Below are positions 25,612 to 41,935 of a DNA stretch of 64,000 nucleotides, piece by piece. The stretch is from an uncultured Acidobacteriota bacterium (GTDB lineage Bacteria > Acidobacteriota > Thermoanaerobaculia > Multivoradales > UBA5704), in contig CAVWRJ010000013.1 of the NCBI GenBank assembly GCA_963757335.1, positions 471,803 through 535,802 on the forward strand, read 5' to 3'. The translations under genes and the position numbers were made by a program. Each line of letters starts with the position of its first letter. The first letter of the stretch is position 1. The notes under the pieces were generated by a model. It saw only the letters and a program-made list of their open reading frames with translations. It made no database searches and was not told the origin of the DNA.

Positions 25612-28600
25612 TTAAACTCCTAAGACCGTCCGCTTCCGGCGCAGCAGGGCGAAACCAGCACCCGCGAGAAGCAGGGCGAGGATGGCGAAGCCGAGCGGCG
25701 AGAGAGTCGGCACGTCGATCACCGACTGGGTGACCTGAAAAGTGGTGGGATCGATCACCGGAGTGACCGTTGCCGGGTTGTCGGTCAGGCCCGTCGCCTC
25801 GTTGGTACCGTTGTTGTCGCCGTCGAAGTGGATCGTCCCCTGGTTGCTGATCGTCGTTCCGGCGGTCCCGGGATTGATGGTCGCCTGAATGGTGATCGTC
25901 ACCGAGCCGCCGGCCGGAATGGCACCGTTCCAGGTCACCGTGCCGGCGCTCTGTGCCGCCACGCCGGAGGTGGCCGTGACGCTTACGAAGGTGAGGCCCG
26001 CCGGCAGGCTGTCGGTGAACTCGTTGCCGGGATTGTCCGCCTGGGCGGCGTTGCCGGAGTTGGTGAGCACGACCGTATAGGTCACGGTCCCGCCCTCGTT
26101 GGTGCTGCCGGTCACCGCCTTGGTGCCGGTGACGTCAGCACCTGGGCCGACGGTGAGCTGGGTCGGGTCGTTCTTGGCAGCGGTCCCCGGATCGTCGGTC
26201 ACCGCCGTCGCCTCGTTGGTGCCGTTGCCATCGGCGTCGAAGGCGATCTGCCCCTGGTTGGCGATGGTCTGGCCGGCCGTGTTGCTCTTGATGGTGGCAT
26301 GGATGGTGATCGTCACCTGCCCGACGACCGCCGGCAGCGCTCCGTTCCAGGTCACCGTGTTGGTGGCGACGTTGGCCGTGGCGGTGCCGGAGGTGGCGGT
26401 AGCCGAGACCAGGGTCAGGGTCGAGGGCAGAGCATCGGTGAATTCGTTGCCCGGGTTGTCCGCCTGCGCCCCGGAGCCCGTGTTATTCAGGGTGACCGTG
26501 TAGGTGATGGCACCGCCGGCGACAAAGCTGCCGGCGACGGTCTTCGTCCCCGAGACGGCCGCCGTGGCTGCGAAGGCGGTGCAGGTGAAGGCCGTGGGGG
26601 TCACGATGAGCGACCAGGTGTTGAGCTGGCCGGTGTCGAAGCGCGCCTCGTCGGCGACGTGGACCTTCCACACCCCCTGGGAGCTCCGACCTTCGGTGTA
26701 GGAGAACTGGTCGATGGGGTCGGGACCCAGGTTGGGGATGCCGAAGAGGCTCCAGATCGGCGAGTTGAAGGCCGGCAGCCAGTCGAGGGTGTAGGGAGCG
26801 TCGGCCGCGCCGGAGAGGTTCAAGTCGTTGGTAGAGTTGGCGGTGATCAGGGTATTGACGAAGTTGTCGCCGTCGCTGTCGCCGATGAAGGAACCGCGCA
26901 TGTAGATGAGGCTGGTGCCGTACCCGGAGGGCGCCTTGAGACCGACGACCAGGTCACCGGTGAAGGTGTGCTGGAGGTCGTCGACCCGGAATTCGAGCTG
27001 CGAGACATCGAGGTCGTCGGCGATCGTCATCGCGTCGGTGACACCCCGCAGGTCGTTGTCCGGGATGGCGAGGCCGCTCGGAATGGTGCGGGTGTAGGTC
27101 ACCGGGGTGCCGGGCCCCGTGGGGTTGCCGACGCGCACCGTGAAGTCGACGCTCTTGGTGCCGAGGGTCGAGGTGACGGTCATGGTGAAGTGGATCGACT
27201 GGCCGCAGAGCGCGCTCGTCGGCACGAGGAAGAGGAAGGGGGTGCCGGAGGTGACGCCCTGAGCCGCGATGGCGGAGTAGACCGAGCTCCCGGTCAGGAT
27301 GGTGACGCCCGGGGTCGACGTCGTGAGGGTCGCCGTCGCCGACGCCACGTTCATCGCCGTGTCGTGCCAGGGGTTGAGCAGATCGACCGTCAGCTTGATC
27401 GGCTCGCCGGGATCGATCGCACCGTTGTTGTTGCCCAGGGTGTCGTCGACCGTCAGGTTGTTGACGTCGAGGTAAGGGATCGAGAACGACTCGCCGACCC
27501 CGAGGAAGGCGCCGGCCCCCACGATGCCGTCCTGGCCCAGGGGGGAGATCGCCTTGTAGCCCAGGCCGCGGTCCGCGAAGCCGCCCCAGATCCACTTCTC
27601 GTTGGCGCAGGCATTGGCGGCGCAGTCGGCGTCGATCAGGGCGTCCCGCGCGTCGGTGAAGCTGGGGTTGATCGGCGTCATCTTGAGGCCGTCGGTGACG
27701 ATCGAGAGCATCTTGTCGTTGCCGGTCGGCACGTCGCCGTTCGCCCCCGCCGGATCGGCGATGATGCGGCTCCGCACCTCCCAGAGGGTGTTGGCCCAGA
27801 TCTCGCCGACGTTGTGCACCTCGAGGGCGCCGCCGCCGGCGAAGAAGACGTTCAACGGGCTCGGCGCGATGCCGCCGGCGGTATTGATCGTGACGTCGTC
27901 GACATCGGCCCAGGTGAGCGGGTTGACGCTGTTGTCCGTCGAATAGGGGAAGCGGCGGATGCCGTAGAGATAGTTGTCGGTCAGCCCGAGGAACTGGTAG
28001 GTGGCGTAGGCACCGGCCACGTACTCGGCGTTCGGGGGGAAGGCGTTGCTGCTGTTGAGGAGCGAAAGGGCGTAGAAATCGCTCCACCCCTCTCCCATGC
28101 CGCCCCCCTCATCCCAGATCAGGCCGTTGCCATCGCCGATCAGCCGGTTCGACGTGCCGTGGGTCAGCTCGTGGAGGACGACCGTGGCGTCCAGGCTGCC
28201 GTCCCGGTTCGGGGTCGGGAAGTCGAAGATGTACATCTGCATCCGACCCGATGTGCCGTCCGGCGGGGTGGAGAAGTTCGAGTTGTCGGTCCCCGAGCCG
28301 TCCTGGCACTCGGCGAGCACCGGGTCGCCGCCCGTGCCGCCGTTGGCGAAGTTGTTGGTCTGGAAGTTGCCGGCCGCCTCGTCGAAGCCGAAGCTGTAGA
28401 GCCGGTCGTGGTACCAGTTGGTGAGATAGAAAAGATGGGTGACGGTGCCGCGCTGCGCCTGGGTGTCGGTGGGCGGGGTGCCGGCATCCGGGTTGCCGCC
28501 CATGGGGGCCGGCGTGTAGGCGTAGCCGGTGCCGAGGAAGTCGCGCTGGTGTGTGTTGGCGTCGACGTTGCCGACCGGCCGGCCGTTGTCGTCGAGCAGC

Positions 28601-29826
28601 CCCGCGTCAGGGGCGTCGTCGGCGTCGGTGTCCAGATAGGTGTCGGTGTTGTTGCCGGTCGTCGTGTTGCCGCCGTCCGGAATCCAGCCGTCGGGGGAGG
28701 CCGTCGTGTCCTGCGCCGTCGACATGTTGACCGTCGTCCGGGCGATCTCGGGGAACTGGGTGCCCGAGCCGGGAGTGACGTTGGTCGGCGAGTGCGGCGC
28801 CGGGCTCTCGGCCGGGGTCTTGCCGTCCCCCTGCACGTAGACGCTGAAGCGCGCCTCCTCGGTCGAGGCGTAGCTCCGCATGTTTTTCCGCCAGAGGAGG
28901 ACGCCGCTGCCGGCGTCGACCAGGGTGTTCCAGTCGCCGGGGCCCTTGGCGAAGGTGATCTGCTGCCAGGCCGGCACGAGAACGCCGGGGCCCAAGGGGA
29001 AGTAGACGAGGTGGCTCGCGACGCTCCCCTTGATCTGCGGATCGCCGGCGACGACGTCCACCCGCGACCCGTCGGGAGTGGCGTTCTTGAGGCTCATCTT
29101 CGCCGGGTCGAGGCTGATCCCCACCGACTTCATGGCGATCGCCAGGGCCTGCTGGGCGGTGACCTGGGGCGAGACCGCGAGGGCGTTGACCGGCGCGTCG
29201 GGAGCGAGGAGGCCGACGACGCGGAAGATCCGGCCGTTCCTGTCCAGGGTCACCCGGGTGTCGCTCTGGAAGACCGGCAGACCGTTCGCCGTCTGCTCGA
29301 AGCGCACCATCCTGAGGCCGCTCTTCCTATCGACGCTCTCACCTTTCCAGTGGAGGTTTGTGAGGTCGACCGCGGACAGGCCGTAGAGGCCCTCGTTGGC
29401 GCGCAGGAAGTCGAGGACGATGTCCTTGCCCGCCTTGCCGGGGGCGGCACCGGTCAGGGCGCCCTGGTGGTTGCGGACGATTTCCGGCGCGCCGAAGAGG
29501 GGCGAGAAGCGCACCTCGGCGCCGGGGGAGGCGGCCTTGAGCCGCGCGGCCCCCTGCTGGACGGCCTGGATCTGAGTCGTGGCCCGCGCCCCGGTGACCC
29601 GGGTGTCGATCCGGTTGCCGGAGAGGACCCGCACCAGGTCGCGCCGGCTGTTGACCCGCACGTCGAGGTTGCCGACGGCTCCCGCCACCCCCGGTTTCTC
29701 GGTGGGATGGGGCGGCGCCACGACGGCTCCGGCCGGCCATGCCGGGAGAAGGGCGAACGTCAGGAGAGCGGAGAGGATGAAGGTAGATGGGCGGCGAGAC
29801 AGGCGGGTGACCCGGGTTGATCCCAT
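25612..29826 (-). CDS. M36 (fungalysin)-family metallopeptidase precursor: signal peptide, FTP propeptide, M36 catalytic domain (HELTHG), P-domain-like, two DUF11 repeats, IPTL-CTERM-like C-terminal sorting tail
   Basis: ATG 29824-29826 with GAGGAG RBS (a longer GTG-initiated ORF to 29874 is less likely); VVLHELTHGTSNRL zinc motif; DLQHTFTGDLVVGLKAPSG (P-domain-like); GSGAQADNPGNEFTD x2 (DUF11); terminal VPTLSPLGFAILALLLAGAGFALLRRKR. Confidence 0.8.
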   Translation of the reverse strand: MGSTRVTRLSRRPSTFILSALLTFALLPAWPAGAVVAPPHPTEKPGVAGAVGNLDVRVNSRRDLVRVLSGNRIDTRVTGARATTQIQAVQQGAARLKAASPGAEVRFSPLFGAPEIVRNHQGALTGAAPGKAGKDIVLDFLRANEGLYGLSAVDLTNLHWKGESVDRKSGLRMVRFEQTANGLPVFQSDTRVTLDRNGRIFRVVGLLAPDAPVNALAVSPQVTAQQALAIAMKSVGISLDPAKMSLKNATPDGSRVDVVAGDPQIKGSVASHLVYFPLGPGVLVPAWQQITFAKGPGDWNTLVDAGSGVLLWRKNMRSYASTEEARFSVYVQGDGKTPAESPAPHSPTNVTPGSGTQFPEIARTTVNMSTAQDTTASPDGWIPDGGNTTTGNNTDTYLDTDADDAPDAGLLDDNGRPVGNVDANTHQRDFLGTGYAYTPAPMGGNPDAGTPPTDTQAQRGTVTHLFYLTNWYHDRLYSFGFDEAAGNFQTNNFANGGTGGDPVLAECQDGSGTDNSNFSTPPDGTSGRMQMYIFDFPTPNRDGSLDATVVLHELTHGTSNRLIGDGNGLIWDEGGGMGEGWSDFYALSLLNSSNAFPPNAEYVAGAYATYQFLGLTDNYLYGIRRFPYSTDNSVNPLTWADVDDVTINTAGGIAPSPLNVFFAGGGALEVHNVGEIWANTLWEVRSRIIADPAGANGDVPTGNDKMLSIVTDGLKMTPINPSFTDARDALIDADCAANACANEKWIWGGFADRGLGYKAISPLGQDGIVGAGAFLGVGESFSIPYLDVNNLTVDDTLGNNNGAIDPGEPIKLTVDLLNPWHDTAMNVASATATLTTSTPGVTILTGSSVYSAIAAQGVTSGTPFLFLVPTSALCGQSIHFTMTVTSTLGTKSVDFTVRVGNPTGPGTPVTYTRTIPSGLAIPDNDLRGVTDAMTIADDLDVSQLEFRVDDLQHTFTGDLVVGLKAPSGYGTSLIYMRGSFIGDSDGDNFVNTLITANSTNDLNLSGAADAPYTLDWLPAFNSPIWSLFGIPNLGPDPIDQFSYTEGRSSQGVWKVHVADEARFDTGQLNTWSLIVTPTAFTCTAFAATAAVSGTKTVAGSFVAGGAITYTVTLNNTGSGAQADNPGNEFTDALPSTLTLVSATATSGTATANVATNTVTWNGALPAVVGQVTITIHATIKSNTAGQTIANQGQIAFDADGNGTNEATAVTDDPGTAAKNDPTQLTVGPGADVTGTKAVTGSTNEGGTVTYTVVLTNSGNAAQADNPGNEFTDSLPAGLTFVSVTATSGVAAQSAGTVTWNGAIPAGGSVTITIQATINPGTAGTTISNQGTIHFDGDNNGTNEATGLTDNPATVTPVIDPTTFQVTQSVIDVPTLSPLGFAILALLLAGAGFALLRRKRTVLGV

Positions 29827-30100
29827 ACGAAGCTCCTCGAAATGCACAGACAAAGAAGTCACAAATTTTAACACAACTCGCGCCGCGGGGCACCCCTTGA
29901 CCAGGATTTGGTACTGGGTCCGTGGGAATCCGAGGACGGGCGACTGGCTGCGCGGAGGGCCCGAAGGAGACCACCCGCAGGTTCAAAAGGACCCAGTACC
30001 CAGGACCCAGGTCGATTGGAGTCTCACCGGGGGGCGTGATACTTTGCCCGGTCTCGCGGGCCTTCGAACCCCGCTCCCCCTGGATGAAAAGGACGGTTTC

Positions 30101-31570
30101 ATGAGCACAGACATCAACGGCCCGATCCGGGTGCGCTTCGCGCCCTCCCCCACGGGGTTTCTCCACGTCGGCGGCGCGCGGACGGCGATCTACAACGATC
30201 TCCTCCGCCAGCACCTGGGCGGCGCCTTCATCCTGCGCATCGAGGACACCGACCGCGAGCGCTCGGACGAGGCGATGACCCGCCAGATCCAGTCGGCCCT
30301 CGCCTGGATCGGAGTCGAGTGGGACGAGGGGCCGTTCCTGCAGAGCGAGCGGCTGGCGCTCCACCGCGAACGCGCCCAGGAGCTGCTCGACAAGGGGCTC
30401 GCCTACCGCTGCTTCTGCACTCCCGAGGAGCTCGACGCCCAGCGCGCCGAGGCGCAGGCCCGGGGGGTCGCCTTCCGCTACCCCCGCACCTGCCTGAACC
30501 GCTCGGCGGAAGAGGTACAGGGGTTCCTCGCCCAGGGCAAACCGTTCGCCGTCCGCTTCCGCATGCCGGACGAGAACATCCGTTTCCACGACCTGGTGCG
30601 GGGCGACATGGACTTCCCGCCCGACGCCCTGGACGACTTCATCCTCCTGCGTTCGGACGGCTCGCCGACCTACCACATGTCGGTCTGCGTGGACGACATC
30701 GACATGCGGATCACCCACGTCATCCGCGGCGAGGACCATCTGTCGAACACCCCCAAGCACATCCCGCTCTTCCGCGCCCTGGGGGGCGAGGTACCGACCT
30801 TCGCCCATCTCCCCCTCATCCTGGGTCCGGACAAGAAGCGGCTCTCGAAGCGCACCGGGGCCACCTCGGTCGAGGAGTTCCGCGCCGAGGGGGTGCTGCC
30901 GCAGGCGCTCTACAACTTCATGGCCCTCCTGGGCTGGACCCCCGGGGACGACCGCGAGATCCTCTCCCGCCGAGAGATGGCGGAGATCTTCTCGGCCGAC
31001 CGCCTGAACGCCTCGGCGGCGGTCTTCGATCGCGAGAAGCTCCTCTGGATGAACGCGCAGTACCTCTCGCGCCTGGGAGTGGCGGAGATCCTCCCTCACC
31101 TCGCGCCCTTCCTCGCGCCCTTGGGGCTCACCGGCGCCGACCCGGCCCGCCTCGCCGCCGCCATCGAGCTCCAGCGGAGCCGCGCCCATACCTTGAAGGA
31201 GCTCGCCCAAGCCCTTCGCCCCTACTTCGAGGAGCGGCTCGACTACGACCCGGCGCTCGCCGCCAAGTTCTTGAAGGACCCCGCTCTCCCCGGCCACGTC
31301 GCGGCCCTGGCCGAGCGTTACGCCGCCCTCCCGGAGTTCGACAAGGGGGCGCTCGAAGCGGCTCTCCGCACTCTCGCCGAAGAGCGTGGATTGAAGGCCG
31401 GGGTGCTCATCCATCCTACCCGCATGGCCCTCTCCGGAGCCGCGGGAGGCCCGCCGCTCTTCGACCTGGTGGAGGTCATGGGCCGCGACGCGGCGGCAAG
31501 GCACCTGGGGAATTTCGTGGCCTTCCTGAAAGAGCCGCCGGTCGCTGCGGCGCCCACCGCCGAAGGATAA
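30101..31570 (+). CDS. gltX: Glutamate--tRNA ligase
   Basis: AAAAGGA RBS before ATG 30101; HIGH-type motif PSPTGFLHVGGARTA and KLSKR motif; full-length class I GluRS. Confidence 0.9.
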   Translation: MSTDINGPIRVRFAPSPTGFLHVGGARTAIYNDLLRQHLGGAFILRIEDTDRERSDEAMTRQIQSALAWIGVEWDEGPFLQSERLALHRERAQELLDKGLAYRCFCTPEELDAQRAEAQARGVAFRYPRTCLNRSAEEVQGFLAQGKPFAVRFRMPDENIRFHDLVRGDMDFPPDALDDFILLRSDGSPTYHMSVCVDDIDMRITHVIRGEDHLSNTPKHIPLFRALGGEVPTFAHLPLILGPDKKRLSKRTGATSVEEFRAEGVLPQALYNFMALLGWTPGDDREILSRREMAEIFSADRLNASAAVFDREKLLWMNAQYLSRLGVAEILPHLAPFLAPLGLTGADPARLAAAIELQRSRAHTLKELAQALRPYFEERLDYDPALAAKFLKDPALPGHVAALAERYAALPEFDKGALEAALRTLAEERGLKAGVLIHPTRMALSGAAGGPPLFDLVEVMGRDAAARHLGNFVAFLKEPPVAAAPTAEG

Positions 31571-31631: not shown

Positions 31632-31705
31632 TGGGAGATCGTCCAATGGTAGGACATGCGGCTCTGGACCGCAGAATCGGGGTTCGAGTCCCTGTCTCCC
31701 AGCCA
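31632..31705 (+). tRNA. tRNA-Gln (anticodon CTG)
   Basis: Hand-folded cloverleaf: 7-bp acceptor TGGGAGA/TCTCCCA, D-stem GTCC/GGAC, anticodon stem TGCGG/CCGCA with loop CTCTGGA (CUG), T-stem CGGGG/CCCTG, discriminator G + encoded CCA. Confidence 0.85.
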
Positions 31706-31747
31706 ATCCCTCTCCTCCAATCGCTCCTGCTCTCCACCCCCTCAAGA

Positions 31748-31945
31748 TTGCCTGGCGGAAGCCAGGCATCGTATAATCGCATTTTGCACTACAAAAGGAG
31801 AGCAATTGAAGAAGCCACTTAAAAAAAGCGGAAGCTGGTCCTGTCGAAGGAAACCGTGCAGGCGCTGGACCTCGGACTTGTGCAGGGCGGCGTCAAAACG
31901 GATTCTTGCTACCTGAGCGCGGCAAATTGCCCCATTTTTTGATGC
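31748..31945 (+). other. Promoter-like TTGCCT-N18-TATAAT + AAAAGGAGAG RBS + TTG-initiated 36-codon basic Cys peptide ORF (31806..31916) + T-run; candidate small gene or sRNA
   Basis: Read directly in an AT-richer gene-free stretch after tRNA-Gln; peptide LKKPLKKSGSWSCRRKPCRRWTSDLCRAASKRILAT; 8-bp hairpin with GGAA loop at 31749-31768; GGCA/TGCC stem + TTTTTT at 31920-31940. Confidence 0.25.
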
Positions 31946-32080
31946 CCGGCAGCGATTAGCTGCCGAGAGCCCTCCGGTCCCCTGAGACCGGAGGGCTGCC
32001 CAGCTCCTGAAGCTCTACGGTATCCCGCCCATCCGAGGAGAACCGACGAGCCCGAACGGGAGCAGAAACTTAAAAGCCGA

Positions 32081-32500
32081 GCCAAAACGCCCTAAGCTCC
32101 AGTAAATCCCCCCTTAACTCCAGTTAAGCTCCGAAAAACTCGAATTGCGCCTCCGTAAACTGAAATAGGAAGCCCCTAAACTGGAGTTGGACCGGCCTAA
32201 ACTGAAATACGGAGCGCCTAACCTCTCTTTGTACCGCCCTAAACTGAAATACGGAGCACCAAAACTCTCGTTGCTCCTGCCTAAACTGAATTGCGGAGCA
32301 CCCAAACTCAGTTATCGGCGTTTCGCGGGAGCTTAGGGAGGTTTCGGCCGAGCTCGGAGACCTTAAGGCGGAGGTTATCGAGGTCCGGAACTCGCTTGGA
32401 GACCCCCGTCGTCACGTTGGGGACGCCGCGGAGGCCCTCAGGGACCCTCCTGGCGCGGTTGGAGACGGTCCCGCCGGCTTTATCGGGCAGGAGCCTCAGG
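32081..32500. repeat. Degenerate tandem array with 21-bp period (~20 units); early units CCTAAACTGAAATACGGAGCN, later units with GGAGACC core
   Basis: Segmentation into 21-mers by eye keeps CCTAAACT / GGAGC(N) in register across ~420 bp; stops in most frames; lower GC than flanks. Confidence 0.6.
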
Positions 32501-32825
32501 TTCTAGGGTGCTTTGAGACCAGGAAGCGCCCGCGCGAGCGCCTCACCCAGGGCAGGCGCCTGTAGCCCCTCAGGGCCGTATGACTTCAACATGGGCAAGA
32601 GTCGGGCCGGGCGGCACTACCCGCCGATCGAGCGTCCAACGCGGCGCTGGTCGCCGCTCAAGTCGAGCCAATCCCCCGCCGTGGGAGCCCCTCCACAGGC
32701 GATGAGAGGGAGTCATGGCAGCGGCGCTTTGTGGTAGCCTCCGGCCTCTCGCCAACCTCGTAGTCGAGACGGACTCCCGTGAGACGGACTCCCCCTGGGA
32801 AGCCAGCGCCAGTGAGCATGAAACC

Positions 32826-35525
32826 ATGACCCCCGTCCTCGGCGGCCGGCGCGAGCTGCGGGCGAGCCTGCTCATCGGGCTCTGCTGTCTGCTGGTCTAC
32901 AACGCCAACGGGCGGGCGATCAGCCCCGGCGACGCCTTTCCGGCGCGCTACCTGCCGTTCGCGATCTGGCGGTACCACAGCCTCCTTCTCGATCCCATCG
33001 CGACGCTCGCCGCCCAGGGGCGAGCCGATCGGGCGTACTGGATGGTGCGGGTGCCCGGCGGCCACATCATCTCGCTGTACCCCGTGGTGCTGCCGGTGCT
33101 CGTCGCGCCGCTCTACCTCCCCGCGATCGGTTACCTGCAGCTGCGGGGTTGGACGGATGGGCGGCTGGACCACCTAGCGAGGGTCATGGAGAAGCTCTCC
33201 GCCTCGCTCGTGGCGGCGCTTTCCGCGTCGCTCCTCTACCTGCTGCTGCGGCGCCGGGCGGAGGCGCCGATCGCACTGCTCCTCACCCTGGCTTATGCCT
33301 TCGGCACCACCACCTGGGTGATCGGCAGCCAGGCTCTGTGGCAGCACGGGATGGCGGAGTTGCTGGTGATCGGCGCCCTGCTGCTCCTCACCGCGCCGTG
33401 CACCGCGCCGCGGGCTCTGGCGGCGGGGTTGCTGTGCGGGCTCATCGCCTGCAACCGCCCGCCGGATGCTGTTCTCGCGGCGGCGCTGGGCGCTTACGGA
33501 CTCTTCTGGGCCGGCCGCCGGGCGGCGCTGCTCGCCGCGGCGGCGGTGCTGCCGGCGGCCCTGGTGCTGCTCTACAACCTCGGCGTGGCCGACCACTTCG
33601 CCGGCGGTTACGGGCGGCTTGGCAGGGCCAGCTTCTTCCAGCACGACCTGCTTTCCGGCCTCGGCGGATTGCTGTTCAGCCCGACGCGGGGGCTGTTCGT
33701 CTTCTCACCCTTCCTGCTCTTCCTCGTCCTTTCCTTCCGGCACCTGCCGAGCGACCGTGGCGACCGTGGCGAGCGCGGTCTCAGCCTGGCGATCAGCGCC
33801 GGCGTCGCCCTCCAGCTCCTGCTCTACGCCTTGACCGACTGGCGGGCCGGCATCTCCTGGGGGCCGCGCTTCCTGACCGACCTCCTGCCGCTCCTCCTGT
33901 GGATGCTGGTGCCGGTGGTCGCCGCACTGCGCGGCTTCGGCCGGGTGTGCTTCCTGCTTGCGGTCGGCGCGGCGGTCGCCATCCAAGCCATCGGCGCCTT
34001 CTGGTACACCGGCGCGACCGACAGCGCGATTTTCGCCGTGGCCAGCGGGCCCCACCAGATGCGGGCCGCGTGGGACTGGCGAAACGCACCGTTCGTCGCT
34101 TCCTTGAAGCATGGCCTCGCGCCGGCGGAGCTCTCGACCGAGATGCGCGGCAATATCGACGCCATCGACGCGATCGACGCGATTGACGCCAGCGGCGCCG
34201 GCAGGCGCGCGACCTCCGCCGTCAACGCCGGCCAGGAGGTCGTCGCTGCCGGCTGGGCGCTGGCCGGCCACGCCACGCCCTGGCAGGTGGCCGTCGTCGT
34301 CGACGGCCGGCAGATCGTCACCTCCCGCACCTTCTTCGACCGGCCCGATGTCCGCGGTACGCTCCACGAGGCGAGCCCCGCCGGCTGGCGCATCCCGCTC
34401 GGCACGGCCGGCCTCGCTCCCGGCGAGCACTATCTGGCCGCCCACGCCTGGGCCTCCGAGAACGGCGAGGGGTATTACCTGGCGGATCGCAAGCTGACCG
34501 TGCGGCCGGCACCGGCGACAGGAGGAGCGGAGCGGGCCGCCGACGAGGACTGGAACGACGGCATCAAGACGGCAGCGGCGCGGCTTCGGGCGCACCAGCA
34601 GGGGCCGGGGTACTGGCTCACTGCCTACACGAGAGCGGCGCGCTTTGCGGAGCCGCACCAGGAGATGAACACCTTCCTCACCGCCTTGCTGCTCGACCTG
34701 CTCGATCCGCTGGCAGCCACCGGCGGTCTCGGCGACAGCTTGGAGCGCGCCCGCCAGCACCTCACCGGCCAGATCGAGGCCAGCGGGCTGGTGCGCTACC
34801 ACGGCCTCCCAGACGCTCCCGGCATCGGCACCCTGGGGTGCGCGATCACCCCGGATGCCGACGACACGGCGCTCGCCTGGCGGCTCGCTCCCGGCCACGA
34901 CCGCCGTCGGCGGTTGCCGGCCGCCCTGGCGGTCCTCGACCGATATCGCACCCGCGAGGGCCTCTACCGCACCTGGCTGGCGCCACGGGAGGCCTACCAG
35001 TGCATCGACCCGGGGAGCGATCCGGACCCTGCCGACATCGGCATCCAGATGCACGTGCTGCTGCTGCTGGCCAAGGTGGAGCCGCCGGCCGGCCGGGCGC
35101 TCTGCGCAGCTCTCCGCCCAGTGGTCGACGAGGATCGGGTCTGGGTCTACTATCGTAGGGCGCCGCTGGTCCCGCTCCTGCGCCTAAGCGACCTCGAGCG
35201 CGCCGGCTGCGCGCTCAAGCTGCCCGAGTCGCGGCTGCGGACGCCGGTGCCAGGCCAGGAGATCTGGGTGTCCCTCGTCCGGCTCCTGGGGCGTGCGCGG
35301 ACCCCCGGAGGCCCACCGCCCGACGCGGCAGAGCTCCAGGCGGTGCTGCGGCAGCTCGCCCGAGAGGACTTTGCCCTTCTGCGAAAGAATCCACCGCTCC
35401 TCTACCACAACGATCTCACCGCGACGACCCCGAGATACTACTGGTCGGAGGACGTCGGCTACGCGCTCTGGCTAAGGCTCGCTTACGAACATGCGCACCT
35501 CCGGCACCCCCATCCGAACGGCTAA
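32826..35525 (+). CDS. Large membrane protein: N-terminal GT-C-like (PMT_2/ArnT-like) multi-TM domain, beta-sandwich region, C-terminal alpha/alpha-toroid (six-hairpin / terpenoid-cyclase-like) domain
   Basis: Start moved to ATG 32826 (MTPVLGGRRELRASLLIGL...); ~11 TM helices in first 420 aa; C-terminal QQGPGYW (QxxxGxW-like) and DADDTA motifs; in-frame (IDA)4 9-bp microsatellite. Confidence 0.65.
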   Translation: MTPVLGGRRELRASLLIGLCCLLVYNANGRAISPGDAFPARYLPFAIWRYHSLLLDPIATLAAQGRADRAYWMVRVPGGHIISLYPVVLPVLVAPLYLPAIGYLQLRGWTDGRLDHLARVMEKLSASLVAALSASLLYLLLRRRAEAPIALLLTLAYAFGTTTWVIGSQALWQHGMAELLVIGALLLLTAPCTAPRALAAGLLCGLIACNRPPDAVLAAALGAYGLFWAGRRAALLAAAAVLPAALVLLYNLGVADHFAGGYGRLGRASFFQHDLLSGLGGLLFSPTRGLFVFSPFLLFLVLSFRHLPSDRGDRGERGLSLAISAGVALQLLLYALTDWRAGISWGPRFLTDLLPLLLWMLVPVVAALRGFGRVCFLLAVGAAVAIQAIGAFWYTGATDSAIFAVASGPHQMRAAWDWRNAPFVASLKHGLAPAELSTEMRGNIDAIDAIDAIDASGAGRRATSAVNAGQEVVAAGWALAGHATPWQVAVVVDGRQIVTSRTFFDRPDVRGTLHEASPAGWRIPLGTAGLAPGEHYLAAHAWASENGEGYYLADRKLTVRPAPATGGAERAADEDWNDGIKTAAARLRAHQQGPGYWLTAYTRAARFAEPHQEMNTFLTALLLDLLDPLAATGGLGDSLERARQHLTGQIEASGLVRYHGLPDAPGIGTLGCAITPDADDTALAWRLAPGHDRRRRLPAALAVLDRYRTREGLYRTWLAPREAYQCIDPGSDPDPADIGIQMHVLLLLAKVEPPAGRALCAALRPVVDEDRVWVYYRRAPLVPLLRLSDLERAGCALKLPESRLRTPVPGQEIWVSLVRLLGRARTPGGPPPDAAELQAVLRQLAREDFALLRKNPPLLYHNDLTATTPRYYWSEDVGYALWLRLAYEHAHLRHPHPNG

Positions 35526-35631
35526 AGCTTCCGCGGTGCGGCGCAAGCCGCCAGCGCCGGCGGCGCCACCGGCAAGGCCGGCGAAGCCGGCGCCCGTCCC
35601 CCGGCAGGCGGCGCCCCGATGGGCGCCCGCG

Positions 35632-36531
35632 GTGCCGGCTGCCACCTCGACCCGAGGCCGCCATGGCGCGCCCCTTCGCCGCTACCTGTCCTGCCTGCGC
35701 CTGCCAGAGATCCTCGTTCTCCAGGGCTCACCCCTGCTCGGCGCCGCCTTCGCGATCCGCCACCCGGCGGCGGCGAACCTGGGGCCGCTCGCGATCCTCA
35801 CCGTCGCCAATGTCTTCCTGATGGCGCACATCTTCATGCTCAACGACTGGTCCGGCCTGACCACCGACCTCGCCGACCCCAACAAGGCCGCCAGCGTCTT
35901 CACGGCCAGAGGCGTGGACCGCAAGGAGATCGGCGGTCTGGCGGCCGGCCTGCTGGCCTTCAGTCTCCTCCTCTTCAGCCGCCTCGGCCCCAGCACTCTC
36001 TGGCTGGCACTGGCCATCGCTACTTTGAGCGCCCTCTACTCCCTACCCCACTTTAATTGGAAGGGCAGACCGCTCCTCAACTCGGCGGCCCACCTGGCCG
36101 GCGGCGCCCTCCACTTCCTCCTCGGCTACTCCCTGGGGAGCGCCATCGACCGTCGCGGGTTCGCCATTGCCACCTTCTTCGCCCTGACCTTCGCCGCCGG
36201 CCACCTGACCCAGGAGGTCCGCGACCACCAGGGCGACGTCCTCAACGCCATCCGGACGAACGCGGTGATCTTCGGCCCCCGCCGCACCTTCGCCGCCAGC
36301 CTGGCCCTCTTCACCCTGGCCCATGCCCTCCTTTGCCTCCTGGCCCTCCAGGGCATCCTCCCCCGTCCCCTGGCAGCCCTCATCGTCCTCTACCCCGTTC
36401 ACCTACGCTGGTCGTGGAGGACTCTGGCCGAGGGCCTCACCTACGCGAGCATCCGCCGCCTGCAAGCCCGTTACCGCGTGCTGTACGCCATCATCGGACT
36501 GGCAATGGTGGCAGCCCTATGGCTTGACTGA
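35632..36531 (+). CDS. UbiA-family prenyltransferase (start uncertain: GTG 35632, GTG 35536 or ATG 35491)
   Basis: NDWSGLTTDLAD (NDxxDxxxD) motif after two TM helices; 8-9 TM helices; no in-frame ATG between 35491 and the first TM. Confidence 0.65.
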   Translation: MPAATSTRGRHGAPLRRYLSCLRLPEILVLQGSPLLGAAFAIRHPAAANLGPLAILTVANVFLMAHIFMLNDWSGLTTDLADPNKAASVFTARGVDRKEIGGLAAGLLAFSLLLFSRLGPSTLWLALAIATLSALYSLPHFNWKGRPLLNSAAHLAGGALHFLLGYSLGSAIDRRGFAIATFFALTFAAGHLTQEVRDHQGDVLNAIRTNAVIFGPRRTFAASLALFTLAHALLCLLALQGILPRPLAALIVLYPVHLRWSWRTLAEGLTYASIRRLQARYRVLYAIIGLAMVAALWLD

Positions 36532-37803
36532 AAGGGCGCGTTCGAGGAGCAGCTCGCGCTCCCTCGCGTTTCGCGTCATCTCCGCCGCCCGCTCGAACTC
36601 CCCGCGTGCCTCGTCATAACGTCCAAGCTTGGCGAGGAAATCGCCGCGCACGCTCGGCAGGAGGTGGTAGCCCTGGAGCGCGGGCTCGGCGGTCAGCGCA
36701 TCGACCCGCTCCAGCCCCGCCGCCGGCCCGAACGCCATGGCGACGGCGACCGCGCGGTTGAGCTCGACGACGGGGGAGGGGGTGAGCTGGGCGAGCACGG
36801 CGTAGAGCGCCGCGATGCGCTGCCAGTCGGTCTCCTCCGGGGTCCGCGCCCGAGCGTGACAGGCGGCGATCGCGGCCTGGAGCGCGTACGGGCCCTCTGC
36901 GCCGCCGAGGGCCTCGGCACGCTTGAGCGCGGCGAGTCCCCGGCGGATGAGGAGATGGTCCCAACGACCACGGTTCTGATCGAGGAGGAGGATGGGCTCT
37001 CCCGACGGACCGACCCGCGCCCGGGAGCGCGACGCCTGGATCTCCATGAGGGCGACGAGGCCGTGGACCTCCGGCTCCTTGGGCGCGAGCCCGGCGAGGA
37101 TACGGCCGAGACGGAGCGCCTCCTCGCAGAGGCCGGGCCGCATCCAGTCGTCCCCCGCGGTCGCCGAGTAGCCTTCGTTGAAGATAAGATAGATGACTTC
37201 GAGCACCGAGGAGAGCCGGGCGGCGAGCTCGGCGCCGCGGGGGACCTCGAAGGGGACCCGCGCCTCGGCCAGGGTCCGCTTGGCCCGGACGATGCGCTGG
37301 GCGACGGTCGGCTCCGGGACTAAGAAGGCACGCGCGATCTCCTCGGTCGTCAGCCCCCCGAGGAGACGGAGGGTGAGGGCCACCCGCGCCTCGGCGGAGA
37401 GCACCGGGTGACAGGCCGTGAAGACGAGGCGGAGGAGGTCGTCGCCGATGTCGTCGTCTAGAGCGGTCTCTACATCCGCCACGGCCCTCTCCTGCTGGAC
37501 CGTGAGCTCGCGGCCGAGCTCCTCGTGCTTGCGCTCCACGAGTTCCCGGCGGCGCAGCCGGTCGATGGCGCGATGCTTCGCGGTCGCCATGAGCCAGGCG
37601 CCCGGATTGTCCGGGACGCCCGACTCCGGCCACCGTTCGAGGGCGACGACTAAAGCGTCCTGTGCCAGCTCCTCGGCGAGACCGACGTCGCGCACGATCC
37701 GCGCGAGGCCGGCGATGAGCCTCGCCGACTCGATCCGCCAGACCGCATCGATTGCGCGATGGGCGGGATGGGCGGGATAGGTTTCGGTGGCCGTCACGGC
37801 CAC
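36517..37803 (-). CDS. ECF sigma factor with long C-terminal TPR-like extension (ECF42-type)
   Basis: Sigma-70 regions 2 and 4 (ALVVALERW..., EEIARAFLVPEPTVAQRIVRAKRTL) followed by ~250-aa helical extension; adjacent DGPF/YciI-like gene as expected for ECF42. Confidence 0.8.
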   Translation of the reverse strand: MAVTATETYPAHPAHRAIDAVWRIESARLIAGLARIVRDVGLAEELAQDALVVALERWPESGVPDNPGAWLMATAKHRAIDRLRRRELVERKHEELGRELTVQQERAVADVETALDDDIGDDLLRLVFTACHPVLSAEARVALTLRLLGGLTTEEIARAFLVPEPTVAQRIVRAKRTLAEARVPFEVPRGAELAARLSSVLEVIYLIFNEGYSATAGDDWMRPGLCEEALRLGRILAGLAPKEPEVHGLVALMEIQASRSRARVGPSGEPILLLDQNRGRWDHLLIRRGLAALKRAEALGGAEGPYALQAAIAACHARARTPEETDWQRIAALYAVLAQLTPSPVVELNRAVAVAMAFGPAAGLERVDALTAEPALQGYHLLPSVRGDFLAKLGRYDEARGEFERAAEMTRNARERELLLERALSVKP

Positions 37804-37856
37804 CGATCAGACCATCTTAAATAAAGCGGTGCAAGTCTCGCGGCGCTCCCCGCCGG

Positions 37857-38282
37857 CTACGGCTTGGCGGCGATCTGCGCGCGCAGGCGCTCCTCCTGCT
37901 CCCGGAGCTCGGGAGTGAACTCTGGCCCGAAGTCCTCCGCCTCGAACACCTGGCGGATCTCGATCTCGGACTCGCCGTTAAACGGGTTGGGACAGCGCTT
38001 GACCCATTCGATCGCCTCCTCCTTCGACTTCACCTGCCACAGCCAGAAGCCGGCGATCAGCTCCTTGGTCTCGGCGAACGGTCCGTCGATGACGGTCCGC
38101 TTCGTGCCGGAGAACTGGACGCGCGCCCCCTTCGAGCTCGATTGGAGCCCCTCGGCCGCCAGCATGACGCCGGCCTTCACCAGCTCCTCGTTGAACTGCC
38201 CCATCTCGGCGAGCAGCTTCTCGTCCGGAAGAAGTCCCGCCTCCGAGTCCTTGGTGGCTTTGACAATGACCATGAATCGCAT
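37857..38282 (-). CDS. YciI-like / DGPF-domain protein
   Basis: ATG 38280-38282 with AAGGAG RBS (longer ORF to 38396 is Arg/Pro-rich, no RBS); MRFMVIVKATKDSEAG... DGPF-type fold signature. Confidence 0.75.
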   Translation of the reverse strand: MRFMVIVKATKDSEAGLLPDEKLLAEMGQFNEELVKAGVMLAAEGLQSSSKGARVQFSGTKRTVIDGPFAETKELIAGFWLWQVKSKEEAIEWVKRCPNPFNGESEIEIRQVFEAEDFGPEFTPELREQEERLRAQIAAKP

Positions 38283-38439
38283 CGTAGTTTCTCCTTCGGG
38301 TTGCAAGGTTGGGAGCCGGGCTGCCGGGCGGTTCCGGCCGGGTGTCCTCGCCCTGGCTCTACTAGGACGTCGAACGAGGCGACTCGAAATCGACACGCCG
38401 ACCGAAATTGGGCGATAACCGCGGGAGAGGGCACCCGCC

Positions 38440-38853
38440 TCAAGGCGCCACGAGGACCATCCAGCCCACGCCGAAGCGGTCGGCGACCATGCCGAAGTGC
38501 GGGGAAAAGAAGGTCTTGCTCAAGGGCATCTGCACTTGCCCACCGTCGGCCAGGGCGGCGAACAGCCGCTCGGCCTCGGCACCGTTCGCCGCCGAGAGCG
38601 ACAGCGAAAAGCCCTGGAAGCTTGGTGCTCCCCCGCACATCCCGTCCGAGGCGAACACCGTCGAATCGCCGATGCGGAAGCTGGCATGCAGCACCTTGTC
38701 GTCGGAACCGGGCGGGATCATGCCCGGGGGGGAAGGCTCGGGGCTCTCCTTGTAGCGCAGGAGCGCCGTCACCTCGGCGCCGAGCGCGCTGCGGTAGAAC
38801 TCGATCGCCTCCTCACAGCGGCCTTCGAAGAACAGGTAGGGCTGGACTTGCAT
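38440..38853 (-). CDS. VOC-family (glyoxalase/PhnB-like) protein
   Basis: AAAAGGAGA RBS before ATG 38853; PhnB-like sequence (MQVQPYLFFEGRCEEAIEFYRSALGAEV...). Confidence 0.75.
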   Translation of the reverse strand: MQVQPYLFFEGRCEEAIEFYRSALGAEVTALLRYKESPEPSPPGMIPPGSDDKVLHASFRIGDSTVFASDGMCGGAPSFQGFSLSLSAANGAEAERLFAALADGGQVQMPLSKTFFSPHFGMVADRFGVGWMVLVAP

Positions 38854-40052: not shown

Positions 40053-41486
40053 TCAGCCGAGAGTCCGCACGAACCGGTCGAACACCGTCTTCCTCTGCGT
40101 CTCGACGCAGAGGAAGACGGGGGCCTGCCTCCACCCCACGATGTTCGACACCGCGCTCCCGGCGGCCCCGAGCGTCACGGTCGCGAAGGGGAGCCCCTGG
40201 CAATGGCCGTCCCGGCTCGGGCCGCGGAAGAGGTGGACCTGCGGGAAGGGGGTTGGCGTGGCGTTGATCGAGACTTCGATCTGGGTGGTGAAGCGGTGCT
40301 CGGCAGGGAACCAGCGGGAGATGAAGCGGGTCACCTCCTCGTGAACCGGCCCGTCGTAGAGGAGCCGGTTGGGCGAGCCCGCTCCGAGGTCGCCGACGAG
40401 GGCGCCCGCGGTCGCATTGATCAGGAGCAGCTGGCGGATCTGGGCGGGCGGCAGATCCGGGAGCTGCTCTAAAAGAAGGGCGAGGGTTCCGGTCACGAAG
40501 GGCGCCGAGATCGAGCTGCCGGAGTTGACGGTGGGCTGCTCGCCGCCCTGGGTCGTCACGTCCTTCCCGGGCGCGAAGAGGTCGACGCAGCGGCCGAAAC
40601 CGGAACGTGGCGGGCGTTGATCGAGGATGTCGCTGATCCCCACGGTGATCGTCTCGGGCGAGCTGGCGGGGGTGGACTGGCAGGCGTCGGCGCCATTGTT
40701 GCCGGCGGCGTCGACCAGGAGGACCCCCAAGGCGTCGAGCTGCTGGAAGAGCGCCTCCTCGGCGGCGTTCGGGCCGAACCCGATATAGCTCATGTTGACG
40801 ACCGCCGGGACCGTGGGATTCGCCTGGCGCCAGGTGACGATGTCGTCCAGGGCGGCGAGCTCGGCGAAGCCGTAGATGTTGCCGGCGCAGTCGGCGATCC
40901 GCATCAGGAAGAGCGAGGCCTCCGGAGCGACGCCGTAGACCTTGCCAGCGGCAGCACTGGAGACGATCGTGGCGTGGGTATGGTCCGTCCCGCAGGTGTT
41001 GAAGACTCCCAGGCCGTCCGAGAGGTAGTCGGTGCCGCCGACGATCCGCGCCCCGAATTCGTCCAGGTTGGGGAAGATGCTGGTGTCGAGGACGAAGATC
41101 CGCACTCCGCGCCCGGTGTAGGGGCGGACGGCGTTGCCGTCCAGGGGGAGGGTCCGCTGGTTGACGCGGTCGAGCGGCCAGGGGGCGCCGTCCGCCGTCA
41201 GGTGGAGGGTCGGCAGAAGCTGGACGTCGTAGCCCTGGAAGGCCAGGAGCCGAGCGGTCTCGGCGGGCATCTCGGCCACCACGGTCCCGGGGAGGTTCCG
41301 AAGCTCGCGCCGGGGGACGAGGCCGAGGGGGCGGAAGAAGGTGACCAGGCGTGTCATCCCCGCGGAGTCCCGGGCCACGGTGTTGGTCCCCGCCCGCACC
41401 ACGTACTCTCCCGCGCGAGCGGCCGGGGAAAGGGCCAGGGTCCAGACCAGCGCGAGCAGGAACGGGAAGGGGGGGAAACGTCTCAT
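40053..41486 (-). CDS. S8-family (subtilisin-like) serine peptidase precursor
   Basis: ATG 41484-41486 with AGGAGG RBS and signal peptide MRRFPPFPFLLALVWTLALSPAARA; catalytic Asp (VLDTS), His (GTDHTHAT) and Ser (GSSISAPFVTG) blocks. Upstream in-frame (QGADDSR)n extension rejected. Confidence 0.8.
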   Translation of the reverse strand: MRRFPPFPFLLALVWTLALSPAARAGEYVVRAGTNTVARDSAGMTRLVTFFRPLGLVPRRELRNLPGTVVAEMPAETARLLAFQGYDVQLLPTLHLTADGAPWPLDRVNQRTLPLDGNAVRPYTGRGVRIFVLDTSIFPNLDEFGARIVGGTDYLSDGLGVFNTCGTDHTHATIVSSAAAGKVYGVAPEASLFLMRIADCAGNIYGFAELAALDDIVTWRQANPTVPAVVNMSYIGFGPNAAEEALFQQLDALGVLLVDAAGNNGADACQSTPASSPETITVGISDILDQRPPRSGFGRCVDLFAPGKDVTTQGGEQPTVNSGSSISAPFVTGTLALLLEQLPDLPPAQIRQLLLINATAGALVGDLGAGSPNRLLYDGPVHEEVTRFISRWFPAEHRFTTQIEVSINATPTPFPQVHLFRGPSRDGHCQGLPFATVTLGAAGSAVSNIVGWRQAPVFLCVETQRKTVFDRFVRTLG

Positions 41487-41573
41487 CGATCGACCTCCTG
41501 GTACAGCCCGACATCCTCTAAGTGGGTGCCTCGGGGGGGGCGGGAGGAGGACACTCTCATCGTCGCGACGCGG

Positions 41574-41888
41574 GTCGTCGGCGCCCGGGCGCGGGTCGTC
41601 CGCGCCCTGGCGCGAGTCGTCCGCGCCCTGGCGCGAGTCGTCCGCGCCCTGGCGCGAGTCGTCCGCGCTCTGGCGCAAGTCGTCCGCGCCCTGGCGCGAG
41701 TCGTCCGCGCCCTGGCGCGGGTCGTCCGCGCCCTGGTGCGAGTCGTCCGCTCCCTGGCGCGAGTCGTCCGCGCCCTGGCGCGAGTCGTCCGCGCCCTGGT
41801 GCGGGTCGTCCGCGCCCTGGCGCGAGTCGTCTGCGCCCTGGCGCGAGTCGTCCGCGCCCTGGTGCGGGTCGTCCGCGCCCTGGCGCCG
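41574..41888. repeat. Near-perfect 21-bp tandem repeat, ~15 copies, unit GTCGTCCGCGCCCTGGCGCGA
   Basis: Read directly; few point variants (GCGGG, CTGGT, GCTCT, TCTGC); each unit contains imperfect palindrome CGCGCC-CT-GGCGCG; open in frames of both strands (RPRPGAS / QGADDSR). Confidence 0.85.
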
Positions 41889-41935
41889 GTCCAAGCGAGC
41901 AGGAGCTTGGCATTGACCCTGCTAAACTAGCTGTG

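Follow-up and report, generated by a model that had tools for sequence, protein, structure and literature searches.

A predicted two-gene envelope module of Thermoanaerobaculia pairs a GT-C-fused, terpene-cyclase-like barrel with a divergent UbiA prenyltransferase

We analysed a 64,000-nucleotide window from the genome of an uncultured bacterium of the class Thermoanaerobaculia, phylum Acidobacteriota (assembly GCA_963757335.1, contig CAVWRJ010000013.1, positions 471,803 to 535,802 of the forward strand); all positions below are those of this window, whose base composition is about 69% GC. Two adjacent genes on its + strand are the subject of this report, namely gene A (32826-35525), which encodes a fusion of a GT-C membrane domain, a linker, a beta-sandwich and an apparently exported alpha/alpha barrel, and gene B (35491-36531), which encodes a divergent intramembrane prenyltransferase of the UbiA superfamily. 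The best explanation of the data is that genes A and B form a self-contained, vertically inherited two-gene envelope module, in which UbiA and the barrel are the constant pair while the large membrane partner varies. GT-C proteins, UbiA enzymes and alpha/alpha barrels are each of a known kind, and it is their combination that appears to be undescribed, as our literature searches returned no described fusion of a GT-C protein with a cyclase-like domain and no periplasmic DxDDTA protein. The barrel family is without a curated Pfam or NCBIfam model, is strictly paired with its own UbiA clade and is usually fused to a GT-C domain. We tentatively favour a scheme in which UbiA would make a prenyl lipid, the exported barrel would act on that lipid by means of a DxDD acid and the GT-C domain would glycosylate it, and we hold this scheme to be a possibility somewhat short of an even chance.

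The barrel (residues 566-893 of gene A; 34521-35504, + strand) is predicted to be a single (alpha/alpha)6 barrel of about 330 residues. When it was modelled alone with AlphaFold2 from an alignment of 69 diverse sequences, the model reached a predicted local distance difference test score (pLDDT) of 93.2 and a predicted template modelling score (pTM) of 0.92. A Foldseek search of the PDB with this model showed that the top 18 matches were all class II terpene cyclases (E 5e-6 to 1.4e-3, template modelling score (TM-score) 0.43-0.64), led by the TC-beta domain of the drimenol synthase AsDMS (9M7D/E/F and 9MHS; E 5e-6 to 1e-5, TM-score 0.56-0.64) and including the 345-residue Cystobacter 'SHC' 8PAK (E 2e-5) and MstE 6SBG (E 1.7e-4). 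The leading structural matches are enzymes that work with the beta domain alone, and squalene-hopene cyclase (SHC) itself was matched at E 2e-3 with a TM-score of 0.36. The first glycosidase, a GH88 enzyme, appeared at rank 19 (E 1.5e-3), with MmpH (4e-3) and GH76 (7e-3) among the other glycosidase-like barrels; the sugar isomerase and epimerase barrels YihS and cellobiose 2-epimerase were found at 5e-3 to 9e-3, and thioester domains fell in the same range. In E-value the glycosidase-like barrels were about 300-fold or more weaker than the cyclases. A preliminary description of this DNA, made from its letters and open reading frames (ORFs), had set a class-II-cyclase-like reading of the barrel beside a carbohydrate role that it called equally possible; the fold search favours the former. 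The outcome that the same description had named as speaking against it, a toroid of glycoside-hydrolase type with its aspartates away from the pocket, is not what was found.

Two motifs mark the barrel. A QW-type motif, QQGPGYW (residues 591-597; 34596-34616, + strand), is located at the end of the first barrel helix, and PDADDTALAW, which contains the DxDDTA motif (residues 676-685; 34851-34880, + strand), is located at the N-terminus of a barrel helix that DSSP assigns to residues 678-687. Their conservation was determined in 44 cluster representatives at no more than 50% mutual identity and in the 69-sequence alignment. The Q, G and W of QxxxGxW were each present in 41-42 of the 44 representatives; D679, T681 and W685 were present in all 44, and D677 and D680 in 43. 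Residues Q591, G595, W597, P676, D677, D679, D680, T681, L683 and W685 were invariant or near-invariant in both sets. As judged from these alignments, QxxxGxW and PDxDDTALxW are conserved across the family and are not chance features of one sequence. Further invariants of the barrel are E613, E651, R657, Y658, Y714, W717, D737, H743, W773, R786, Q811, the run H861-N862-D863, W873 and R884, and when the alignments were read against the AlphaFold2 model, the invariants were found to share one face of the barrel, where long loops precede alternate helices. The conserved aspartates of the DxDD motif are located on this face together with all the conserved loops, which suggests that they are part of the functional centre of the barrel.

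Several features of the family point to the barrel being exported. It is C-terminal to the last transmembrane (TM) helix of the GT-C fold, and of the stand-alone barrel proteins (about 340-400 residues) with a complete N-terminus, 52 of 66 carry a hydrophobic signal or anchor, some with lipoboxes. Fusions of HEAT repeats to the barrel have a single N-terminal anchor, and four proteins (P0276, P0281, P0289 and P0296), natural deletion variants, have TM helix 1 of the GT-C part (…RRELRASLLIGLCCLL…) connected straight to the barrel. The barrel contains only four Cys residues (672, 726, 760 and 795), each at least 90% conserved, and is probably disulfide-bearing. In the four deletion variants the membrane anchor of the barrel has been kept and the glycosyltransferase has been lost.

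The genetic context of the barrel was determined in 86 loci with enough downstream DNA, drawn from GTDB species genomes and metagenome contigs; most belong to Thermoanaerobaculia, and the others to Holophagales, Vicinamibacterales, Pyrinomonadaceae, Xanthobacteraceae and metagenome-assembled genomes (MAGs) of beta- and gammaproteobacteria. The results showed that 82 of the 86 loci have a UbiA gene immediately after the barrel and in the same orientation, the remaining four having it in convergent orientation, upstream or at a distance of 8 kb. The stop codon of the barrel gene usually overlaps the start codon of UbiA, suggesting co-translation of the two. The large membrane protein at these loci is less constant. 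In Dokdonella soli a stand-alone barrel is followed by a UbiA gene (52% identical) and then by a 592-residue protein with 11 TM helices, with an ArnC/PpgS-like GT2 and a sugar dehydratase/epimerase divergently oriented upstream of the barrel. At three further loci (L088-L090) the barrel and UbiA adjoin a polytopic protein of 806-831 residues with weak PMT_2 and LA_3751 matches, and in the protein P0148 the barrel is fused to a member of that same membrane-protein family. At locus L091 a GT2 of the polyprenyl-phosphate-sugar-synthase type (AglJ, PpgS and ArnC models) is fused to the barrel (P0239) and is followed by UbiA and then by a DUF6077 membrane protein; the barrel is also present in a longer protein with a GT4. 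Proteins consisting of the GT-C domain alone (about 430-470 residues) exist as well, and at the three such loci examined no UbiA gene was found nearby, two of the three lying amid genes for GT2, GT4, aminotransferase, acetyltransferase, sugar epimerase and ABC-2 transporter proteins. Given that stand-alone barrels keep UbiA and that GT-C paralogues without the barrel lack it, the linkage follows the barrel and not the GT-C domain.

Gene A and UbiA are the sole conserved genes at these loci. In Thermoanaerobaculia no further conserved neighbour (GT2, short-chain dehydrogenase/reductase or other membrane protein) was found in about 90 loci, such neighbours occurring in a few non-acidobacterial loci only, and no MATE or GtrA flippase and no HAD or PAP2 phosphatase was linked in 80+ loci. 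In two proteobacterial MAG contigs (L038 and L051) the fused GT-C-barrel gene faces a convergent UbiA gene whose product is 47% identical, and in L038 a partial second barrel match (54% identical) is present beside the fused gene; these genomes may carry two barrels. The close relatives of the window all come from Thermoanaerobaculia assemblies, in more than 120 of which the gene A protein is 77-89% identical. Relatives of gene A are found in 292 GTDB species, the barrel occurs in more than 600 proteins, and every one of the more than 1400 homologues of gene A is named 'hypothetical protein'. Nearly all members of one class of soil Acidobacteriota have the module, in highly conserved form, so that the pair can no longer be called unusual for this lineage, as it had been in the preliminary description.

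Gene A is contained in a + strand ORF spanning 32715-35525. Reading from the ATG at 32826 gives a protein of 899 residues, and this start is preferred because MTPVLGGRRELRASLL is the conserved N-terminus of the homologues (conserved start MTPVLGG). An AlphaFold2 model of the full-length protein from a 115-sequence alignment had a mean pLDDT of 87.7 and a pTM of 0.62; the latter value indicates that the relative arrangement of the domains is not fixed, with the barrel tethered to the membrane domain and not docked on it. The whole protein matched no Pfam family, and direct sequence searches of the PDB with gene A, with its C-terminal domain and with UbiA gave no match. The membrane domain (residues 1-440; 32826-34145, + strand) is helical over residues 8-393, with about 11-13 TM helices according to hydropathy and the model (pLDDT about 95), and in a Foldseek search with the full gene A model it matched ArnT (5F15 and 5EZM; E 3e-4 to 8e-4), the best match being 5F15 with E 3e-4 over 436 columns, followed by STT3, ALG3/ALG9/ALG12, AftA, PimE and Pmt4. 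At the level of sequence, gene A scores 44.5 bits against the NCBIfam LA_3751/LA_3752 family of putative glycosyltransferases, below its cut-off of 200, and distant relatives reach the Pfam family PMT_2 (PF13231; 27-30 bits, cut-off 26.1). Together, these data confirm, by modelled structure, that the membrane domain has a GT-C fold and is glycosyltransferase-like. An alignment of 18 GT-C-domain sequences at 32-47% identity showed that N28 and D36 (a GD motif) are invariant in the first periplasmic loop, NGRAISPGDAFPARYLP (32907-32957, + strand; coordinates checked), as are E122-K123, Q169, R211 and R348 elsewhere in the domain, and by analogy with the GT-C paradigm D36 is a candidate for the catalytic aspartate. 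The multi-TM GT-C fold, the Asp in the first loop and a C-terminal extracytoplasmic appendage are features shared with ArnT, PMT/PMT_2, Emb/Aft and the GT136 enzyme ORF12; in contrast to these enzymes, the appendage here is a cyclase-like barrel and not a carbohydrate-binding module, gene A reaches no Pfam model and no NCBIfam cut-off, and the make-up of the loci differs from that of the GT136 type.

Gene B was assigned to the UbiA superfamily by Pfam (PF01040, 68.5 bits against a cut-off of 34.2). Its start overlaps gene A by 35 nt, an alternative GTG start is available at 35536, just past the gene A stop codon, and orthologues range from 223 to 362 residues in length. The first 60 or so residues (35491-35670), beginning inside gene A, are a low-complexity stretch rich in Pro, Ala, Arg and Lys. 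The first Asp-rich motif, NDWSGLTTDLAD (35842-35877, + strand), is a variant of the form NDxxGxxxDxxD in which the second canonical Asp is replaced by Gly, and the pattern lNDW.Gl..Dl.DP is kept in 81 UbiA orthologues. The second motif, QEVRDHQGDVLNAIRTNAV (36211-36267, + strand; DxxxD ... RT; coordinates checked), contains RDHQGD and is conserved as QExRDxxGDxxNxIRTNAV in orthologues. A profile of the orthologues searched against the PDB found a single match, the archaeal AfUbiA 4TQ3 (E 4e-7, 240 aligned positions), and did not find the solved DPPRS 8J8J (Rv3806c). The similarity to AfUbiA is low; the second Asp-rich region is alike, motif 1 reads NAxxDxxxD there and NDxxGxxxD here. The 4TQ3 entry was deposited simply as 'Prenyltransferase', and the match carries no functional information. 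When 31 orthologues were compared with NCBIfam, all matches were far below cut-off and no equivalog was reached. Unnamed 'prenyltransferase' models led (31 of 31), followed by homogentisate, MenA, chlorophyll-synthase and DGGGP-synthase models, and the DPPRS models NF008977 and NF008978 were matched weakly and far under cut-off by 6-11 of the 31; the UbiA of the window itself had no DPPRS match at E up to 1. The characterised PPPRS ORF15 has D251 at the position equivalent to the motif-1 Gly found here, and this Asp is important for activity (PMC11127046). We rejected an identification of gene B as a DPPR synthase on the strength of the missed 8J8J and the weak or absent DPPRS model matches. 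A plain quinone prenyltransferase identity is likewise not supported, and by its sequence gene B falls in an unclassified UbiA clade. Of the claims of the preliminary description, the three-part architecture of gene A (from ORF, hydropathy and AlphaFold2), its PMT/ArnT-like GT-C assignment and the UbiA identity of its neighbour are thus borne out, and that of a DPPR-synthase-like enzyme making a sugar donor is not.

The domain folds, the invariance of the motifs, the export signals of stand-alone homologues and the strict linkage of UbiA to the barrel are shown by the analyses above; for the substrate, the acid-catalysed chemistry, the order of the steps and the GT-C acceptor we infer the following. 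UbiA, with canonical topology and its Asp-rich motifs on the cytoplasmic side, would attach an isoprenoid chain to a head group, and the resulting membrane lipid would reach the outer leaflet of the cytoplasmic membrane. There the barrel, held at the membrane by the GT-C domain through the flexible linker and the beta-sandwich, would take up the isoprenoid part of the lipid, and the invariant DxDD aspartates would serve as general acid on a C=C bond, as in MstE and AsDMS, to give a cyclised or otherwise acid-transformed terpenoid. The GT-C domain would then transfer a sugar from a polyprenyl-phosphate-sugar donor to this lipid, or to a glycan on it, and the end product would be a glycosylated terpenoid lipid of the envelope. 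The donor may be supplied by a GT2, adjacent or even fused in some lineages, and the fused GT2 of P0239/L091 and the adjacent one of Dokdonella suggest that the donor has an origin other than UbiA. The scheme would give each enzyme a non-redundant role and would explain why UbiA is tied to the barrel.

This scheme has parallels in known systems. The N-terminal QW helix and the barrel together presumably resemble the SHC beta domain minus the gamma insertion. Moosmann et al. reportedly described a UbiA-type partner of MstE in the merosterol pathway. MstE is a beta-only meroterpenoid cyclase with a reported DxD motif (PMC12414744), and the barrel has the full DxDDTA of the SHC type. For AsDMS, substrate binding in the centre of TC-beta, catalysis by D331/D333 together with a Tyr, and Mg2+-free recognition of the head group are described (PMC12365925). 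An account of the ebo cluster proposes UbiA-mediated tethering of a metabolite for periplasmic export (PMC6282210), and this idea, with the pairing of UbiA and a beta-only cyclase in merosterol formation, provides a parallel for the scheme. The beta-only cyclases (MstE, 6SBB-6SBG; AsDMS, 9M7D-F and 9MHS; 8PAK/8PAJ) and the barrel have in common a single (alpha/alpha)6 barrel of about 330 residues with an acidic Dx(D)D motif some 105-115 residues from its start, and the Mg-independent head-group recognition of these enzymes would fit the conserved Arg residues of the barrel. Unlike them, the barrel appears to be exported and is fused or adjacent to GT-C membrane proteins. With the SHC beta domain it shares the motifs PDxDDTA(L/V)xxW and QxxxGxW; in contrast to SHC, it has no gamma domain and would act in another cellular compartment.

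A number of observations weigh against the cyclase-like reading. No class II cyclase is known to be extracytoplasmic; the known members are all either cytoplasmic or monotopic proteins of the cytoplasmic face. Substrate access from the cytoplasm or the inner leaflet, which is expected of a class II cyclase, is not available to an exported barrel. The TM-scores separate the cyclases (0.50-0.64) only moderately from the lower-scoring glycosidase-like barrels (0.48-0.52). The barrel of the window has no Pfam match, and at E up to 10 its 69 members share no Pfam family. The invariants include many charged residues (Arg, Asp, Glu and His), an excess for a purely hydrocarbon pocket. On the side of gene B, the first UbiA motif lacks its second canonical Asp, the Gly facing that residue in the hidden Markov model (HMM) alignment to AfUbiA, and no gene for head-group synthesis or for a flippase is linked to the pair. 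In addition, a PDB profile search with the barrel family reached SHC at only E 0.53, and an equally good chance match was the isochorismatase EntB, which has 'TPDADDTVLVKW'; given that the string TPDADDT.L..W occurs by chance in EntB, the DxDDTA motif by itself is weak evidence. The family HMM does align 'tPDaDDtaL.vW' to SHC YPDVDDTAVVVW (372-387), and its single QW segment to the four QW motifs of A. acidocaldarius SHC, with non-significant scores in both cases.

The relationship to SHC was also examined using alignments of five plasmid-borne shc genes, which were recovered with an SHC fragment and used in full-length and beta-part versions. Comparison of the barrel with these by hhalign gave probabilities of 18% for the full length and 1.5% for the beta part, with only the QW regions aligned. 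As a control, the SHC beta-part profile found 8PAK (1e-12), MstE (3e-10), drimenyl diphosphate synthases (1e-10), the PL10 pectate lyase (3e-4) and prenyltransferase beta subunits (8e-3). Since this profile detects true beta-only cyclases, the barrel family is more remote from SHC than are 8PAK, MstE, the drimenyl diphosphate synthases, PL10 and the prenyltransferase beta subunits. We therefore rejected sequence-level membership of the class II cyclase family (hhalign values, absence of Pfam matches, E 0.53 to SHC). It is plausible that the barrel works like a beta-only class II cyclase; its membership of the family is not established. A stronger claim would make the barrel the first class II terpene cyclase to act outside the cytoplasm, forming with UbiA and the GT-C domain a new class of glycosylated cyclic isoprenoid lipids on the outer side of the cytoplasmic membrane; we consider it doubtful, with perhaps one chance among several of being right.

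As the general (alpha/alpha)6 fold is shared with glycosidases, a carbohydrate role for the barrel has to be reckoned with. The module might then belong to lipid-linked-sugar glycosylation of the mycobacterial arabinan or three-component pentofuranose type, in which UbiA would make the donor, the barrel would bind or process carbohydrate and the GT-C domain would carry out the transfer; we regard this main rival as only a little less likely than the favoured scheme, and put in the same range the more detailed version in which the barrel would be a hydrolase, lyase or epimerase acting on the donor or acceptor glycan and the target would be an envelope glycan or a protein. A UbiA-family PPPRS working with a GT-C enzyme that has a C-terminal periplasmic binding domain is established (PMC11127046), and a UbiA-family enzyme coupled genetically to a GT-C protein at the periplasmic face is likewise a feature of the three-component pentofuranose and mycobacterial decaprenyl-phosphoryl-arabinose (DPA) pathways. 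The glycan clusters that house relatives of the N-terminal domain, the fusion of the barrel to a GT2, its presence with a GT4 and the sugar dehydratase/epimerase adjoining the Dokdonella pair all fit such a role, as do the many invariant charged residues of the barrel and the presence of GH88 (1.5e-3), MmpH (4e-3), GH76 (7e-3) and cellobiose 2-epimerase (9e-3) in the fold search. One source names the Dokdonella barrel protein 'Pectate lyase', and PL10 belongs to the structural superfamily of SHC. A barrel converting a donor made by UbiA would also explain the strict linkage of the two and the variable GT-C partners. Against this, the UbiA lies outside the DPPRS clade, its profile misses the solved DPPRS and the NCBIfam DPPRS matches are few and weak; the Asp equivalent to D251 of ORF15 is Gly, so that the second Asp of the motif is missing. 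Moreover, neither a phosphatase nor a flippase is linked in any of the 80+ loci, there is no linked epimerase, and the linkage is to the barrel and not to the GT-C domain. The donor synthases that are linked or fused at some loci are GT2 enzymes, beside which UbiA would be redundant in this role. Carbohydrate-active barrels were the weaker matches in the fold search by the margin given above, and among the 69 barrel members no glycosidase Pfam family was found apart from one GH88 match at E 0.25.

The barrel might, on the other hand, be non-enzymatic, serving, for example, to hold the polyprenyl chain of a GT-C donor or acceptor, or to dock onto UbiA, with DxDDTA being structural or binding a metal or ligand. 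The thioester-domain barrels of alpha-2-macroglobulin and C3, which are non-catalytic members of the superfamily, are among the structural matches, non-catalytic periplasmic domains are common on GT-C enzymes, and the pTM of 0.62 is consistent with a barrel that has no fixed interface with the GT-C active site. However, three invariant acidic positions, accompanied in the loops of one face by invariant Arg, His, Asp, Tyr and Trp residues, are typical of an active site, and stand-alone exported barrels retain their UbiA partner; a purely binding or scaffolding barrel is in our judgement improbable. Still less credible, and given hardly any weight, is the second alternative of the preliminary description, an ordinary cytoplasmic pair for meroterpenoid formation or polyprenyl cyclisation with the GT-C-like part as a mere membrane anchor. 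The pairing of UbiA with a class-II-like domain itself speaks for it, and UbiA-type cyclases do occur beside class II synthases in 14% of surveyed actinobacterial ent-CPP synthase clusters (PMC9814783). Yet the barrel comes after the final TM helix of the GT-C domain, its stand-alone forms have a signal or anchor together with the conserved Cys residues, and an exported barrel would rule out such a pathway; the GT-C domain, too, keeps its first-loop Asp and other invariants and is thus not a degenerate anchor.

The pair had also been placed inside a tRNA-Gln island. Its ancestral upstream neighbour is indeed a tRNA-Gln(CTG) gene (31632-31705, + strand; ARAGORN and Rfam), preceded by a class I Glu/Gln-tRNA synthetase gene (GluRS; 29579-31570). 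The tRNA is located upstream of the gene A orthologue in six related genomes (L001, L008, L011, L017, L019 and L022), the order synthetase, tRNA-Gln, gene A and UbiA recurring in L001/L019, L008, L011 and L017, and in L017 and L022 it is only 43-90 nt from the same start codon, with a shared leader '...CAGCGCCAGTGAGCATGAAACCATG'. In the window an insert of about 1 kb (31716-32680, no strand assigned), which is outside the module, separates the tRNA from gene A; its GC content is 59% compared with 69% for the window, and a 15-nt imperfect repeat of the 3' end of the tRNA lies at either boundary (31701-31715 and 32666-32680). The insert contains four copies of a 42-nt unit (32094-32309), each divisible into two 21-nt units with TAAACTGAAATA(C)GGAGC, and a 28-nt inverted repeat (32084-32111 and 32317-32344) encloses the array. 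Rfam gave no match for the tandem repeats, and the tRNA was its sole match in the spacer between tRNA and gene A. The insert is missing in L017 and L022, and in other genomes inserts of 1-6 kb, some with toxin-antitoxin genes, are found between the tRNA and gene A. This marks 31716-32680 as an integration hot spot at the tRNA-Gln gene, occupied in the window by a degraded remnant.

The short distance between tRNA and gene A in L017 and L022, together with inserts that lie between the two, indicates that the pair is core and flanks the hot spot. The proximity of the tRNA and the lower-GC insert with its repeat of the tRNA 3' end might suggest that the pair is horizontally acquired cargo of a genomic island, but the gene order is common to several genomes, the inserts separate the tRNA from the pair, the GC content of the pair (67-72%) equals that of the window, and the identity of 77-89% across the class fits vertical descent. 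That reading is refuted for the window by the synteny in the six genomes and by the position of the pair outside the tRNA-proximal insert, and we assign it next to no probability.

Between the membrane domain and the barrel, residues 439-463 of gene A form a disordered linker (pLDDT below 50 in the AlphaFold2 model). The linker contains an imperfect 4 x 9-nt repeat (34155-34190, + strand; found with TRF) encoding IDAIDAIDAIDA, whose units are, in order, ATCGACGCC, ATCGACGCG, ATCGACGCG and ATTGACGCC; an in-frame 9-nt microsatellite had been noted in this loop before, and it is there, though its four units are not perfect copies. The copy number of D(A/T)IE(A/T) differs from one to about four between close homologues of gene A, and the repeat is most likely a neutral, length-variable tether. 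It is followed by a beta-sandwich spacer domain (residues 463-560; 34212-34505, + strand) with eight strands by DSSP and pLDDT 50-80, for which one relative of gene A gives a weak Big_7 match. The beta-sandwich is present in two tandem copies at loci L021, L055 and L060 and in proteins P0001 and P0003-P0005 (about 1000 residues), and the linker variation and this duplication look like tolerated spacer variation.

Other genes of the window surround the pair. Convergent to UbiA, at 36517-38853 (- strand), are genes for an extracytoplasmic function (ECF) sigma factor with DUF6596, a YCII protein and a protein resembling glyoxalases and the 3-demethylubiquinone methyltransferase; the sigma-YCII pair recurs near the stand-alone barrel-UbiA pair in L088, and in L005, and is absent from most loci. 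Two large secreted proteases flank the region, a 1420-residue M36 fungalysin-like metalloprotease with DUF11 and P-domain repeats (25612-29874, - strand) and a 613-residue S8 subtilase (40053-41894, - strand). Farther upstream, an ORF of 1046 residues (14429-17569, - strand) is an unusual fusion of APH phosphotransferase, M23 peptidase and class-III aminotransferase domains, and overlaps the 5' part of a 1440-residue Ser/Thr kinase-TPR ORF on the opposite strand (16817-21139), so that a wrong start has probably been called for one of them. The remaining genes of the window are unrelated and code for proteases, a Ser/Thr kinase, a TonB-type receptor and parts of ABC transporters.

Should the cyclase-like reading hold, class II terpene chemistry would take place outside the cytoplasm and a new envelope glycolipid is predicted; and if the barrel were in fact an extracytoplasmic cyclase, Thermoanaerobaculia and other Acidobacteriota, which abound in soils, would have an envelope component resembling hopanoids or sterols, one that might also serve as a new source of geolipid biomarkers. 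If, instead, the carbohydrate reading is true, the family would bring to periplasmic glycosylation both a new accessory domain and a new clade of UbiA enzymes. Under either reading, the strict linkage of barrel and UbiA confines the system neatly to two genes, which makes it accessible to a test by heterologous expression.

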